Assembly (NCBI RefSeq): GCF_003334335.1
Contig: NZ_QOWQ01000073.1
DNA: 7,140 nt
Source: Escherichia coli
GTDB lineage: Bacteria > Pseudomonadota > Gammaproteobacteria > Enterobacterales > Enterobacteriaceae
Reading direction: 5' to 3' (one strand)
A model generated the notes under the pieces. It had not been told where the DNA came from. It searched no databases and saw nothing but the letters and a program-made list of their open reading frames with translations. The number at the start of each line of letters is the position of its first letter. Position 1 is the first letter of the stretch. Positions 1,761-7,140 of the stretch are shown one piece after another. The position numbers and the translations under genes were made by a program.

Positions 1761-3251
1761 TTATAAGCCAAAGGATTGCTCATGCCATCTTATCAGTTTC
1801 TGGCTGTAGCACGCATTCAGTTCAGGCAGCGTGATATTGTTTATTTCGGAAAGCAGGACATAGGTGGTTTTTCCTTCCTGCACGACAGAGAGCCTGAGTT
1901 GAGATGCAAGAATGTTCAGCAGGACGTTCAGCTTTTTCCTGTTCCGGAACCGGCCCGGGCCACACTGGAGAATATAATTTTTCCTGACACGGGGCGGGCA
2001 TTCTCCGCGGCACTCCTCAATGAGCCAGTCGAGCAGCTCCCGGGCGTCCTGCAGCTGCAGTTCAGATTCGTCAGGTAACGCAAATAATTTTTTATATTCA
2101 TCTGTGTACCACGAACTTATTACGACAGCAGACGTCATGATATCGGCAGAGATTTTCCCTTCACCCTGACTGAAATACTGCAATAACGCAGCAATTCTCG
2201 CAATGTTTTCTGTTTTTTTTGAAACATGCCCCCGAAACTGGCTTAAGGGTCCGGAAGGAGACAAATCCTGCTCCAGAACATTATAGTGATCAATAAATAT
2301 TTTTTGCGCTTCAGGAGAAAAATGCAGACAATAACGTTCATCCTTACTGGATTTTTCAATACTGCCTCTGGCCAGTTCCATTAATCGTTCATGAAATGCC
2401 GTTAATGATCCTCCCGGGGTCACAGCTCCGTTAATAAAGCGTTTCCCCTGCGTGGTGGCAGGTTTACTGATTAGACAACGGGCAAGAAAACCACTGTCCC
2501 TGGCAACAGAACCTTTTCGCTCCATATATCGGTCAAAAAGACCGGGTTGTACCATGAGGGATAATGTCATTCTAGCATTTTCAATCATCTGTTCGGGTTC
2601 ATTCTTTCTGTCCACCGACAATACGGAGCCATCCCACATTTTGTTAATAAAAGGCAGCTCAGACAGGGTATACCCATCAAATATTATACCGGCTTCATCA
2701 GACATGATACCCACTGAACGCCACTGACCACAAAGCTGATCTTTAATTGCTGCTGTCGTGGCATCATTAAAAATGAATTTATATCTTACAGGTTTTTCCC
2801 CTCTGTTTTTCTGAAGCGCTTCCAGTTGTCTGAGCGTTTCTGACTCATCCGCGCCTTTGCGGAGTTCTTTATTCAGTTTTGACAACAATGCTTTTTTCTG
2901 CGCCTTTAAAAGCTCTTCCTTATTTTTCCATATCGTCAGTTCATTTTTGTGTCTGGAATATAACAGCATCTCCTGCTGGTACAGGGGCTCCATTAATAAT
3001 TTGTCCACTGCGGTTTTTCGTTCTCCGGACTCAGCAAGCGTCAGTAAGAAAAGAGAAACCGGCCCCCGCAGTGTATTCAGTCTGCAGACATCAATCAGAT
3101 TCTGGCAGACAAGTGAAACAGCGCCCAGGGCAGATGCTGCCACAAGCCCCAGGGGAGCCTGCGTGATTTGCTGAGCTTCAATAACGGCATCACGAATGAG
3201 TGGAGGCAGCGAGCTCAGGGGAAACTCATCAGGATACTGAAAGTATGGCAT
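1761..3251 (-). CDS. DUF3987 / YfjI-like island protein, 496 aa, with Walker A-like and Walker B-like motifs
   Basis: Track ORF 1761..3269. The preferred start is ATG at 3251 (minus strand), preceded by GAGG at 3260-3257 with 5-nt spacing. The N-terminus MPYFQYPDEFPLSSLPPLIRDAVIEAQQITQAPLGLVAASALGAVSLVCQ matches the conserved YfjI/DUF3987 N-terminal pattern as I remember it. AESGERKT (aa 73-80) resembles a Walker A and VGIMSDEAG resembles a Walker B. Confidence 0.85.
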   Translation of the reverse strand: MPYFQYPDEFPLSSLPPLIRDAVIEAQQITQAPLGLVAASALGAVSLVCQNLIDVCRLNTLRGPVSLFLLTLAESGERKTAVDKLLMEPLYQQEMLLYSRHKNELTIWKNKEELLKAQKKALLSKLNKELRKGADESETLRQLEALQKNRGEKPVRYKFIFNDATTAAIKDQLCGQWRSVGIMSDEAGIIFDGYTLSELPFINKMWDGSVLSVDRKNEPEQMIENARMTLSLMVQPGLFDRYMERKGSVARDSGFLARCLISKPATTQGKRFINGAVTPGGSLTAFHERLMELARGSIEKSSKDERYCLHFSPEAQKIFIDHYNVLEQDLSPSGPLSQFRGHVSKKTENIARIAALLQYFSQGEGKISADIMTSAVVISSWYTDEYKKLFALPDESELQLQDARELLDWLIEECRGECPPRVRKNYILQCGPGRFRNRKKLNVLLNILASQLRLSVVQEGKTTYVLLSEINNITLPELNACYSQKLIRWHEQSFGL

Positions 3252-4084
3252 AATGACCTCACAACACACAGAACATAAAGTACCGCAACTATTGCTACTA
3301 ATAGCAAAAATAGCAGCAGAATCAATACAGGATAAAAATTTCTGTCGATTTTCAGATTAAATAATAACCATTCGGTATTTTGTCGCTAAAGAATGTTAGA
3401 ATGAATCTGTGCGTCTACGGGCGCTCTCCGGAACACACATGTTGATTAATTTTCACACAACAACGTACCAGCAAAAAGCATCATCCAGGGTATTGCAGGT
3501 ACGGGTTTCCTGCCGGGAATAAACATAAACAGTTTCCCCGGAGTAACGCTTTCAGAAAACTGCCCTCCTGAAGAAGAATAAAATAAAGAAGATGACAGTT
3601 CCTGCACTGAATGCTGAGTACAATATTCTATGGACAGGATGACATTTTTATAAATAACAAAAACCATTTAATACTGATACATCAATAAAATACTTCCTCC
3701 CTGCTGACACAGATAAAATGCAACATTTTTTCTTCAAATACTTCTGTATAATCGCCAGCCAATGATGAGAATGGATTAAAATAACACTTCTTCGACAAAC
3801 ACAAAAACCAGCCTTCATTTTCACATCATCATCCAGTTTTAATTAAACCCTGACGAGCGACAGTATTTCAGTTCAGGAATTAAAAGCCAGCTATTACTCA
3901 GTAAAAACACCACCAACTAATAATATCTCAGCAGATATTTCCTGACCAGGATGACACATTTATTAAAGATTTTTAACAGGACACTTCACATTACTGAACG
4001 CTATTCCGACAGTATCACTACACAAATAAAAAAGGGAACTGGATAAATATTCATGCCGGAAGAATGGTGTAACAAAAGCATTTA

Positions 4085-4582: not shown

Positions 4583-5455
4583 ATGAATCCGTCTGATGCC
4601 ATTGAGGCAATTGAAAAACCACTTTCTTCCCTGCCTTACTCGCTTTCCCGTCACATCCTGGAACATCTGCGCAAACTCACCAGTCACGAACCCGTGATTG
4701 GCATTATGGGTAAAAGCGGGGCCGGTAAATCCTCACTCTGTAATGCACTGTTTCAGGGGGAGGTCACCCCGGTCAGTGATGTTCACGCCGGCACCCGGGA
4801 AGTGCGGCGCTTCCGTCTGAGTGGCCACGGTCACAGCATGGTTATCACTGACCTGCCCGGGGTGGGCGAGAGCCGGGACAGGGATGCAGAGTATGAAGCC
4901 CTGTACCGTGACATTCTGCCTGAACTGGACCTGGTGCTGTGGCTGATTAAAGCCGATGACCGGGCCCTGTCTGTGGATGAGTATTTCTGGCGACACATCC
5001 TGCAGTGCGGACATCAGCAGGTGCTGTTTGTGGTGACACAGGCCGACAAAACGGAGCCCTGCCATGAATGGGATATGGCCGGCATTCAGCCCTCTCCCGC
5101 ACAGGCACAGAACATTCGCGAAAAAACGGAGGCGGTATTCCGTCTGTTCCGGCCTGTACATCCGGTTGTGGCCGTATCGGCCCGCACCGGCTGGGAACTG
5201 GATACGCTGGTCAGTGCGCTCATGACAGCGCTTCCCGACCATGCCGCCAGTCCCCTGATGACCCGCCTGCAGGACGAGCTGCGCACGGAATCTGTCCGCG
5301 CTCAGGCCCGTGAGCAGTTTACCGGTGCGGTGGACCGGATATTTGACACAGCGGAGAGCGTCTGTGTTGCCTCTGTTGCACGCACGGTTCTGCGTGCCGT
5401 CCGTGACACAGTGGTCTCTGTTGCCCGCGCGGTATGGAACTGGATCTTCTTCTGA
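4583..5455 (+). CDS. yeeP: YeeP/YkfA/YfjP-family prophage GTPase (50S ribosome-binding GTPase fold), intact, 290 aa
   Basis: Track ORF 4544..5455 begins at GTG inside a terminator hairpin. ATG 4583 gives MNPSDAIEAIEKPLSSLPYSLSRHILEHL..., which I recognise as the YeeP-family N-terminus. G1 P-loop is GKSGAGKSS, G3 is DLPG, and the G4-like motif is TQADK. The hydrophobic/amphipathic C-terminal tail is ...VVSVARAVWNWIFF. It lies directly upstream of agn43, as in CP4-44-type islands. Confidence 0.9.
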   Translation: MNPSDAIEAIEKPLSSLPYSLSRHILEHLRKLTSHEPVIGIMGKSGAGKSSLCNALFQGEVTPVSDVHAGTREVRRFRLSGHGHSMVITDLPGVGESRDRDAEYEALYRDILPELDLVLWLIKADDRALSVDEYFWRHILQCGHQQVLFVVTQADKTEPCHEWDMAGIQPSPAQAQNIREKTEAVFRLFRPVHPVVAVSARTGWELDTLVSALMTALPDHAASPLMTRLQDELRTESVRAQAREQFTGAVDRIFDTAESVCVASVARTVLRAVRDTVVSVARAVWNWIFF

Positions 5456-5526
5456 ACCTGTTGTGGATGATGTCCTCCTTGCCTCTGAGTCTGCTCACAA
5501 AAGCGCTGTTTTCGTTACTGTCTCTC

Positions 5527-5555
5527 TTGTCCGTGCAATAGCTTGATAATAGAAT
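5527..5555 (+). promoter_or_regulatory. candidate sigma70 promoter of agn43/isrC
   Basis: TTGTCC (5527-5532), a 17-bp spacer, then TAGAAT (5550-5555). This predicts a start near 5562, at the first GATC, which fits the known layout where the OxyR/Dam region begins around +1. Confidence 0.6.
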
Positions 5556-5600
5556 AAAACGATCGATACCTATTTTATCGATCGTTAATATCGATCGTTA
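5556..5600. promoter_or_regulatory. agn43 phase-variation operator: three Dam GATC sites within the OxyR-binding region
   Basis: GATC occurs at 5561-5564, 5580-5583 and 5593-5596, each in a CGATCG context. ATCGATCGTTA is repeated at 5577-5587 and 5590-5600. The position immediately downstream of the -10 matches the published Dam/OxyR switch of agn43. Confidence 0.85.
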
Positions 5601-5760
5601 TGCTAATAATAACTCCTGTTAGCAACGTGCACAGATACACACAGACATGAGATTCAGGGAACAACAGAGCCACACGTCAGAAACTTCCGTCAGCCGGACC
5701 TCCGGCACTGTAACCCTTTACCTGCCGGTATCCACATCTGTGGATACCGGCTTTTTTATT
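5562..5760 (+). ncRNA. isrC: agn43 leader / IsrC-like terminated leader transcript (~200 nt)
   Basis: It runs from the predicted start (~5562) to the leader terminator T-tract (5752-5760), which ends 28 nt before the flu ATG. In K-12, as I recall it, isrC (~195 nt) lies between yeeP and flu on the flu strand and ends shortly before flu. The boundaries here are inferred, not mapped. Confidence 0.5.
5724..5760 (+). terminator. intrinsic terminator inside the agn43 5' leader
   Basis: Perfect 12-bp stem GCCGGTATCCAC (5724-5735) / GTGGATACCGGC (5740-5751), loop ATCT, followed by TTTTTTATT (5752-5760). Confidence 0.8.
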
Positions 5761-5788
5761 CACCCTCACTCTGATTAAGGAAATGCTG

Positions 5789-5944
5789 ATGAAACGACAT
5801 CTGAATACCTGCTACAGGCTGGTATGGAATCACATTACGGGCGCTTTCGTGGTTGCCTCCGAACTGGCCCGCGCACGGGGTAAACGTGGCGGTGTGGCGG
5901 TTGCACTGTCTCTTGCCGCGGTCACGTCACTCCCGGTGCTGGCT
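5789..5944 (+). other. Extended autotransporter signal peptide (ESPR type) of Ag43, 52 aa
   Basis: MKRHLNTCYRLVWNHITGAFVVASE is the conserved ESPR extension. It is followed by a basic n-region (RARGKRGG), a hydrophobic core (VAVALSLAAVTSL) and PVLA|AD, which fits an AxA-type cleavage site. Confidence 0.8.
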
Positions 5945-7140
5945 GCTGACATCGTTGTGCACCCGGGTGAAACAGTGAATGGCGGAACACTGGTAAACCA
6001 TGACAACCAGTTTGTATCCGGAACAGCTGATGGCGTGACTGTCAGTACCGGGCTTGAGCTGGGGCCGGACAGTGACGAAAACACCGGCGGGCAATGGATA
6101 AAAGCGGGTGGCACAGGCAGAAACACCACTGTCACCGCAAATGGTCGTCAGATTGTGCAGGCAGGAGGAACTGCCAGTGATACGGTTATTCGTGATGGCG
6201 GAGGGCAGAGCCTTAACGGACTGGCGGTGAACACCACGCTGGATAACAGAGGTGAGCAGTGGGTACACGGGGGAGGGAAAGCTGCCGGTACAATTATTAA
6301 CCAGGATGGTTACCAGACCATAAAACATGGCGGACTGGCAACCGGAACCATCGTCAACACCGGTGCAGAAGGTGGTCCGGAGTCTGAAAATGTGTCCAGC
6401 GGTCAGATGGTCGGAGGGACGGCTGAATCCACCACCATCAACAAAAATGGCCGGCAGGTTATCTGGTCTTCGGGGATGGCACGGGACACCCTCATTTACG
6501 CCGGTGGTGACCAGACGGTACACGGAGAGGCACATAACACCCGGCTGGAGGGGGGTAACCAGTATGTACACAACGGTGGCACGGCAACAGAGACGCTGAT
6601 AAACCGTGATGGCTGGCAGGTGATTAAGGAAGGAGGAACTGCCGCGCATACCACCATCAACCAGAAAGGAAAGCTGCAGGTGAATGCCGGCGGTAAAGCG
6701 TCTGATGTCACCCAGAACACGGGCGGTGCACTGGTTACCAGTACAGCTGCAACCGTCACCGGCACAAACCGCCTGGGAGCATTCTCCGTTGTGGCGGGTA
6801 AGGCTGATAATGTCGTACTGGAAAATGGCGGACGTCTGGATGTGCTGAGCGGACACACAGCCACTAATACCCGCGTGGATGATGGCGGAACGCTGGATGT
6901 CCGCAATGGTGGTACCGCTACCACCGTATCCATGGGGAATGGCGGGGTACTGCTGGCCGATTCCGGGGCCGCTGTCAGTGGTACCCGGAGCGACGGAACG
7001 GCATTCCGTATCGGAGGCGGTCAGGCGGATGCCCTGATGCTGGAAAAAGGCAGTTCCTTCACACTGAACGCCGGTGATACGGCCACGGATACCACGGTAA
7101 ATGGCGGACTGTTCACCGCCAGGGGCGGCACACTGGCGGG
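5789..7140 (+). CDS. flu: Antigen 43 (Ag43) self-associating autotransporter adhesin; 5' part only, ORF continues past the window end
   Basis: This ORF is absent from the track because it has no stop in the window. ATG 5789 is preceded by AAGGAA at 5777-5782, and the frame stays open for 450 codons to position 7140. The translation begins MKRHLNTCYRLVWNHITGAFVVASELARARGKRGGVAVALSLAAVTSLPVLAADIVVHPGETVNGG.... It continues with Gly/Thr/Asn-rich ~19-20-aa beta-helix repeats such as GGTASDTVIRDGGGQSLNG and GGTATTVSMGNGGVLLADSG. I recognise it as Ag43. Confidence 0.95.
   Translation, partial: MKRHLNTCYRLVWNHITGAFVVASELARARGKRGGVAVALSLAAVTSLPVLAADIVVHPGETVNGGTLVNHDNQFVSGTADGVTVSTGLELGPDSDENTGGQWIKAGGTGRNTTVTANGRQIVQAGGTASDTVIRDGGGQSLNGLAVNTTLDNRGEQWVHGGGKAAGTIINQDGYQTIKHGGLATGTIVNTGAEGGPESENVSSGQMVGGTAESTTINKNGRQVIWSSGMARDTLIYAGGDQTVHGEAHNTRLEGGNQYVHNGGTATETLINRDGWQVIKEGGTAAHTTINQKGKLQVNAGGKASDVTQNTGGALVTSTAATVTGTNRLGAFSVVAGKADNVVLENGGRLDVLSGHTATNTRVDDGGTLDVRNGGTATTVSMGNGGVLLADSGAAVSGTRSDGTAFRIGGGQADALMLEKGSSFTLNAGDTATDTTVNGGLFTARGGTLA

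Follow-up and report, generated by a model that had tools for sequence, protein, structure and literature searches.

The agn43 (flu) locus raises the question of what determines how much of the transcription entering its untranslated leader reaches the gene. We addressed this question in a stretch of Escherichia coli DNA (7,140 nucleotides (nt) of contig NZ_QOWQ01000073.1, assembly GCF_003334335.1; the whole stretch is referred to below as the window). Ag43 is a major adhesin in self-aggregation and biofilms, and its expression is a textbook example of epigenetic phase variation. A second layer of control, at a terminator in the agn43 leader, is already recognised, but the mechanism of read-through is poorly described in the accessible literature. 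A reading of this DNA made from its letters alone (hereafter the sequence-only reading) had proposed two mechanisms for the leader: translation of a 43-codon open reading frame (ORF) that runs through the terminator and couples to flu, and antiterminator-like pairing among repeated GCCGG and CCGGC elements. The ORF, the inverted repeat and the GCCGG/CCGGC copies were all present where that reading had placed them, and if read-through were controlled by translation of the ORF or by an RNA switch, the amount of Ag43 made by ON cells would depend on the state of translation or on a signal of some kind. We find that the region corresponds to the agn43 regulatory leader known as the IsrC or IS102 RNA, an already known and ordinary element, and that neither newly proposed mechanism is supported by the comparison of alleles or by folding controls. 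We consider it quite likely that the leader acts as a conserved and leaky attenuator from which IsrC also arises, and that the ORF and the GCCGG copies are incidental. The elements on which this reading depends are as follows.

5559-5764, plus strand: IsrC / IS102 RNA, a transcript of the agn43 leader that ends prematurely (Rfam RF00124).
5724-5760, plus strand: intrinsic terminator with a stem of 12 base pairs (bp; 5724-5735 / 5740-5751), the loop AUCU and the U-tract UUUUUUAUU at 5752-5760 (terminator scan, inverted repeat).
5777-5781, plus strand: agn43 Shine-Dalgarno (SD) sequence AAGGA, overlapped by the ORF stop codon TAA at 5776-5778 (anti-SD duplex of -6.1 kcal/mol).
5789-7140, plus strand: 5' part of agn43 (autotransporter adhesin Ag43), which continues past the end of the window (annotation of NZ_CP042892.1; ATGAAACGACAT kept across alleles).

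A scan with Rfam models identified RF00124 (IS102/IsrC RNA) at 5559-5764 with 255.5 bits, compared to a gathering score of 46 (E = 1.4e-49), and the match covers the whole model, positions 1-206 of 206. It was the sole Rfam match in the window at E values up to 1, and no riboswitch or other sensor or leader family was found there. The same model matches the yeeP-flu spacer of K-12 at 252.6 bits and a second family of leaders, the Cah type described below, at 71-75 bits. The fold of the leader has a z-score of -5.0. Positions 5500-5800 are 100% identical to E. coli O10:H32 NMBU-W12E19, and in the identical locus of NZ_CP042892.1 a GTPase-family coding sequence (CDS) ends at window position 5455 and the annotated agn43 begins at the equivalent of 5789. 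A GTPase gene followed by the leader and an Ag43-family gene, all on one strand, is the layout common to all other intact alleles fetched. The agn43 5' untranslated region measures approximately 227 nt.

The terminator of the leader lies upstream of the agn43 start, where the 3' end of an RF00124-type RNA would be expected. The inverted repeat at 5724-5736 / 5739-5751 is 100% complementary and is followed at 5752-5760 by TTTTTTATT, giving a GC-clamped stem and then six U. Its predicted energy is -24.1 kcal/mol, and its pair probability exceeds 0.99 in the complete leader. The strong intrinsic terminator described in the sequence-only reading was therefore confirmed by the terminator scan and by its energy, as was the identity of the leader by the Rfam score. 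The leader does not end there, as that reading had it, since 28 nt including the SD follow the terminator.

To place this arrangement among other alleles, positions 5500-5800 were compared by a sensitive BLAST search with 5426 complete E. coli genomes, and 14 representative loci were fetched together with the identical one (15 alleles). Two contig collections were also scanned for the terminator pattern and gave 5 genome loci, all from Escherichia or Shigella, and 120 metagenome loci, for a total of 133 loci with 94 distinct leaders. Only 1901 of the 5426 genomes matched over at least 80% of the query. The middle part of the window-type leader was found in 1889 genomes, approximately 748 of them window-like (at least 95% identity) and approximately 1055 K-12-like (80-90%). 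The distinct leaders fall into 30 of the Ag43 type, to which the window and K-12 belong, and 64 of the Cah type. The -10/GATC box is common to both families, as is the whole sequence from ACCTGCCGG onward, that is, the terminator, U-tract, SD and start, while their middle sections of approximately 120-150 nt are unrelated. The block from terminator to SD occurs in 4120 of the 5426 complete genomes, including those whose leaders have an unrelated middle section. Across alleles the stem pair 5731:5744 is U-A in 16 variants, U.G in 76 and C-G in 2, and the loop varies freely. Most loci were retrieved by a pattern that fixes the other stem positions, meaning that only positions degenerate in the pattern could vary, but the BLAST-derived loci present the same picture. 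In these alignments the terminator is the conserved element, and its variation fits a selected RNA hairpin.

At the upstream end of the leader, two features bear on how transcription would enter it.

5527-5555, plus strand: sigma-70-type agn43 promoter with -35 TTGTCC (5527-5532), a 17-nt spacer and -10 TAGAAT (5550-5555) (promoter scan).
5558-5600, no strand assigned: predicted Dam/OxyR phase-variation switch, with GATC at 5561, 5580 and 5593 inside repeated TATCGATCGTTA / AACGATCGATA palindromes (GATC positions, repeat search).

The -10 hexamer and its flanks are kept in 15 of 15 fetched alleles, and transcription probably starts at about 5559-5562, at the first of the three GATC sites. These sites lie directly after the -10 hexamer, an arrangement that would correspond to the Dam/OxyR layout of the agn43 promoter, for which PMC2909390 mentions one OxyR repressor site with three GATCs and a Dam/OxyR switch. 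We propose that this switch, as known from the literature, would set the promoter ON or OFF. In ON cells the polymerase would transcribe approximately 165 nt of structured, non-coding leader and meet the terminator, where most transcripts would be expected to stop at 5752-5760 and give the IsrC RNA of approximately 200 nt. The fraction that reads through would carry the SD AAGGA and ATG 5789 and yield Ag43. That termination occurs here and limits flu expression is taken from brief statements in the literature rather than from the present analysis; the sequence-only reading had likewise regarded premature termination in this leader as previously described, in agreement with the entry 'IsrC sRNA (flu gene attenuation)', where sRNA denotes small RNA, in a list in PMC5811629. 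Because no conserved element able to sense a signal was found, we infer that read-through is mainly a passive leak and not a sensed switch.

One explanation that competes with a passive attenuator, and that we regard as very improbable, is that a leader ORF (5647-5778, or any ATG-initiated ORF that crosses the terminator) is translated, that the ribosome melts the terminator, and that the stop codon within the SD couples this translation to that of Ag43 by termination-reinitiation.

5647-5778, plus strand: 43-codon ORF (MRFREQQSHTSETSVSRTSGTVTLYLPVSTSVDTGFFIHPHSD), most likely no functional gene (present in the sequence; allele comparison).

The ORF itself is real. It runs from ATG 5647 to the TAA at 5776-5778 inside TAAGGAA, the stop lying 10 nt before the agn43 ATG at 5789, and a CA-rich sequence with little predicted local structure precedes ATG 5647, such that SD-independent initiation would be conceivable. 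Conventional initiation finds no support, since the anti-SD duplex energy at ATG 5647 is +0.4 kcal/mol, compared to -6.1 kcal/mol at the agn43 start, confirming the lack of an SD that the sequence-only reading had itself conceded. The other starts from which an ORF could cross the terminator fare similarly (+0.7 kcal/mol for the K-12 alternative, -1.8 and +1.3 kcal/mol in Cah-type leaders), and no SD-preceded start of any kind was found between 5562 and 5782.

Nor is the ORF conserved. ATG 5647 with a terminator-crossing ORF is kept in 13 of the 133 loci, corresponding to 11 of the 94 distinct leaders, and the ORF from this codon ends in TAAGGAA in 9 of the 94. K-12-type leaders have AAG at this position and lack one base just upstream, and nothing homologous to it exists in Cah-type leaders. 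The frame is also shifted by at least four 1-nt indels that arose independently, with deletions at the equivalents of approximately 5645, 5690 and approximately 5714 and in the U-tract, and a 2-nt deletion was found near 5641; deletions of 1, 4 and 6 nt occur among alleles 3' of the terminator. Some indels in the ORF region do preserve the frame (-3, +6 and -6), but frame-breaking indels, which the sequence-only reading had named beforehand as refuting its ORF idea, were found. Substitutions (n = 37) are distributed over codon positions 1/2/3 as 11/17/9, the second position being the commonest, and 6 are synonymous against 31 non-synonymous, where 25% synonymous would be expected at random. 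Both other frames show more synonymous changes and in this sense look more 'coding' than the ORF frame. Furthermore, changes in the terminator stem that are compensatory in the RNA alter the peptide (S/P, D/G). The peptide had no match in Pfam or NCBIfam, an exact-sequence look-up in GenBank returned only automatically called 'hypothetical protein' entries, and the Prokaryotic Genome Annotation Pipeline (PGAP) left the ORF unannotated in the identical locus NZ_CP042892.1. Taken together, these patterns argue against the proposed translation and coupling to flu.

Several observations nonetheless weigh against the passive, non-coding reading of the leader. None of the 94 distinct leaders lacks an ATG ORF that crosses the terminator, and in 83, including leaders with unrelated upstream sequence, a crossing ORF lies in the frame proposed in the sequence-only reading, most ending at the TAA of TAAGGAA; the variants are related and mosaic, and these counts are not independent. 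The joint chance of long crossing ORFs in both leader families is approximately 0.03, for a threshold chosen post hoc. One citing paper uses the word 'antitermination' for the agn43 leader, which would imply an active mechanism; no such mechanism was identified here. Accounts of the way read-through arises, and of its possible regulation, come from single-line mentions in citing papers. The primary paper on this leader is reportedly that of Wallecha et al. 2014. One of the citing sources on the agn43 leader and IsrC, PMC5389530, refers to a 2014 work.

The way in which individual alleles arrive at a crossing ORF varies. K-12-type leaders regain an ORF through the hairpin by means of an ATG located 20 nt farther upstream and two 1-nt deletions that compensate each other, and a 4-nt deletion fuses this ORF in frame to agn43. 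In K-12 MG1655 the ATG in question lies 156 nt before the agn43 ATG (position 1784 of the fetched locus, L002), and translation of the fusion would put 52 residues in front of the signal peptide, which speaks against the translated-ORF explanation. In other alleles the crossing ORF stops at TGA 5772 or elsewhere.

The universal presence of crossing ORFs is largely explained by three properties of the leader: the hairpin has no stop codon in any of the three frames, stop codons in the leader are not depleted, and shuffled leaders yield crossing ORFs readily. Specifically, 2 stops were observed versus 4.0 expected in 5623-5772 (P = 0.15) and 6 versus 5.0 in 5601-5723, showing no depletion in either interval. 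When the upstream leader of the window was shuffled and the terminator kept, 55% of shuffles contained a crossing ATG ORF, and in 11% its start lay at least 74 nt upstream; across the shuffling runs the corresponding ranges are 53-85% and 7-27%. The 43-codon ORF is most likely a by-product of a stop-poor, C/A-rich leader joined to a terminator that is open in three frames, as far as can be judged from the alleles compared. It seems very unlikely that the Ag43/Cah family is selected for some SD-independent ORF through the terminator, of any sequence or frame, ending in or fused to the initiation region of the adhesin. If it were, occasional translation of such an ORF would govern read-through of the terminator and prime initiation at agn43. 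In practical terms, chance easily produces an ORF that spans a GC-rich terminator when the leader contains few stops.

The second competing explanation is that the arms of a small hairpin upstream of the terminator swap partners with the GC clamp of the terminator, and that an antiterminator-like three-way structure is stabilised by a factor or condition and leads to read-through. We hold this to be very improbable.

5693-5706, plus strand: mini-hairpin GCCGG-ACCU-CCGGC with 5 bp and a 4-nt loop (predicted fold; present in the Rfam consensus structure).

The mini-hairpin exists, with a predicted energy of -9.8 kcal/mol and a pair probability of 0.92-0.95, but not in the form GCCGGA-CC-TCCGGC in which it had been drawn, as a 2-nt loop is sterically impossible. 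GCCGG occurs at 5693-5697 and 5724-5728 and CCGGC at 5702-5706 and 5747-5751. Four such sites within 59 nt do form a local cluster (approximately 0.3 would be expected at the density of the window itself), yet the repeats are not special to the leader: the whole window contains 35 GCCGG/CCGGC sites compared to 12.9 +/- 3.6 in dinucleotide-preserving shuffles, none of which reached 35. The four leader copies are the GC clamps of two separate hairpins, not four independent elements.

Strand exchange is possible in principle, as both stems carry identical 5-bp clamps. The complementarity also extends beyond them (CCGGCA:UGCCGG, and in K-12 AGCCGGACCU:GGGUACCGGCU), with free duplexes of -14.8 to -17.4 kcal/mol, and in transcripts that stop short of the final 4 nt of the 3' arm, 5702-5707 pairs with 5722-5727 with a probability of 0.18-0.50. 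The segment from mini-hairpin to terminator is, moreover, identical in the K-12 and window alleles, while the sequence upstream differs. Once the 3' arm is complete, however, the alternative pairs fall below 1e-4 (in the complete leader, 5702-5706:5724-5728 and 5693-5697:5747-5751 have probabilities of at most 1e-4), and the best exchange structure, a three-way junction, reaches -28.7 kcal/mol compared to -33.9 kcal/mol for the terminator plus the mini-hairpin, making it 5.2 kcal/mol less stable. In nascent transcripts of real leaders, the probability that the GCCGG at the base of the 5' arm pairs with upstream sequence is 0.30-0.68, but this is generic: shuffling the 120 nt upstream of the terminator gave mean pairing of 0.50-0.57, and 22-85% of shuffles reached the observed value. 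Because shuffled upstream sequence pairs with the terminator arm equally well, the signal of a kinetic competitor is removed.

The alleles point in the same direction. The mini-hairpin is unchanged in 20 of the 30 Ag43-type variants, but it shows no compensatory double changes among them, only one G.U change and one broken pair. The Cah-type leaders, 64 of the 94 variants, have the identical terminator and no mini-hairpin. As noted above, no riboswitch or sensor family was matched in the window. On these results, the antiterminator pairing of the sequence-only reading is not supported.

Finally, it is most unlikely that IsrC is mainly a trans-acting small RNA, with the terminator serving to make it and cis control of agn43 being secondary, since, although a catalogue in PMC3175480 includes it as an sRNA expressed from the CP4-44 prophage and PMC10783499 mentions that its knock-down with dCas13a altered an engineered lycopene phenotype, the former source calls its function 'totally unknown', a systematic screen (PMC4606813) saw no change in biofilm, motility or fimbriae when it was over-expressed, and in the loci examined it is always joined to an agn43/cah-family gene. 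A role of this kind is compatible with the cis attenuator.

With a leaky cis attenuator remaining as the favoured explanation, some further properties of the locus may be noted. The OxyR/GATC box at 5558-5600 consists of one AACGATCGATA arm and two TATCGATCGTT(A) arms, and the 5' end of the RNA could therefore form two mutually exclusive 11-bp hairpins, or the Rfam-consensus hairpin at 5576-5600. On the minus strand, the sole terminator-like match of the scan is the GATC palindrome itself, and the ORFs are 30-32 codons long.

At the other end of the leader, TAAGGAA is kept in every allele that retains agn43. The window has a second in-frame ATG two codons before the agn43 start (5783-5791, ATGCTGATG, MLMKRH...), which is AAG in K-12 and most alleles. 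Because this ATG sits too near the SD, the agn43 start is probably still 5789. In read-through transcripts, a low-confidence thermodynamic prediction has the SD AAGGA (5777-5781) weakly paired with the U-tract (5752-5757) with a probability of 0.35-0.6, and the agn43 start codon is predicted, also with low confidence, to be mostly paired in 4 of 5 alleles tested (unpaired probability 0.02-0.09). Pairing of a leader anti-SD element with the agn43 SD was considered as a candidate and rejected, the predicted partners varying by allele and consisting mostly of weak U-tract pairing.

The Cah-type leaders present an observation of their own. In 55 of the 64 variants, for example L013 (NZ_CP021207.1; leader positions of approximately 134-178), an 8-codon ORF, MSGKNHFI*, lies upstream of the terminator (L013 601-640). 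It has a strong SD (GAGAGAGGGGAAGCATTT-ATG) with an anti-SD duplex of -9.0 kcal/mol, and it ends approximately 18 nt before the 5' arm of the terminator; its start is ACG in the 'cah' subtype (L010). On these features it resembles a genuine leader peptide more closely than the window ORF does. Cah-type alleles also have a different ATG, in frame with agn43, 16 nt upstream of the terminator, and in L012 the PGAP pseudogene start was placed there (CDS from 590 instead of 665). Two further loci, L014 and L015 (NZ_CM181232.1 and NZ_CP082085.1), have an IS21-family element (ISEc12) inserted at or just after the leader, leaving the promoter, leader and terminator as a stand-alone IsrC-like unit with no intact adhesin gene.

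Farther upstream in the window, the YeeP-like GTPase gene at 4583-5455 is intact (873 bp), while in K-12 it is a truncated pseudogene, and beyond it a YfjI-family gene occupies 1761-3269 on the minus strand. In the matching genome NZ_CP042892.1, IS66-family elements follow agn43. Given these neighbours, the window is part of a CP4-44-like mobile island.

Compared to known systems, the agn43 leader superficially resembles the ribosome-mediated attenuators of the trpL, hisL and pheL type. In both, a short leader ORF begins ahead of an intrinsic terminator, and a ribosome on the RNA would in principle block formation of the hairpin. Unlike those leaders, that of agn43 lacks a ribosome-binding site, a conserved start or frame, a run of regulatory codons and an antiterminator beyond what chance provides, and its ORF traverses the terminator rather than ending before it. 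The TAA at 5776-5778 inside TAAGGAA is similarly reminiscent of translational coupling by a stop codon that overlaps a ribosome-binding site, but here the arrangement is allele-specific and translation of the upstream ORF hypothetical. The Salmonella RNA that is also named IsrC is unrelated to that of E. coli. Closer at hand, the Cah-type leaders have a -10/GATC box, terminator, U-tract, spacer and SD identical to those of the window, but neither the GCCGG mini-hairpin nor a homologue of ATG 5647. The nearest relative is the IsrC leader of the K-12 CP4-44 prophage, which shares the flanking genes, the promoter, the three GATC sites, the mini-hairpin, the terminator, the SD and the full-length model match, and to which the window allele is approximately 89% identical over 301 nt. 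At 5647-5649 the window reads ATG where K-12 reads AAG; it also has one additional base near 5645, another at 5690 and four more (TGAT) after the terminator, and it is these differences that give the window allele a separate 43-codon ORF ending in the SD.

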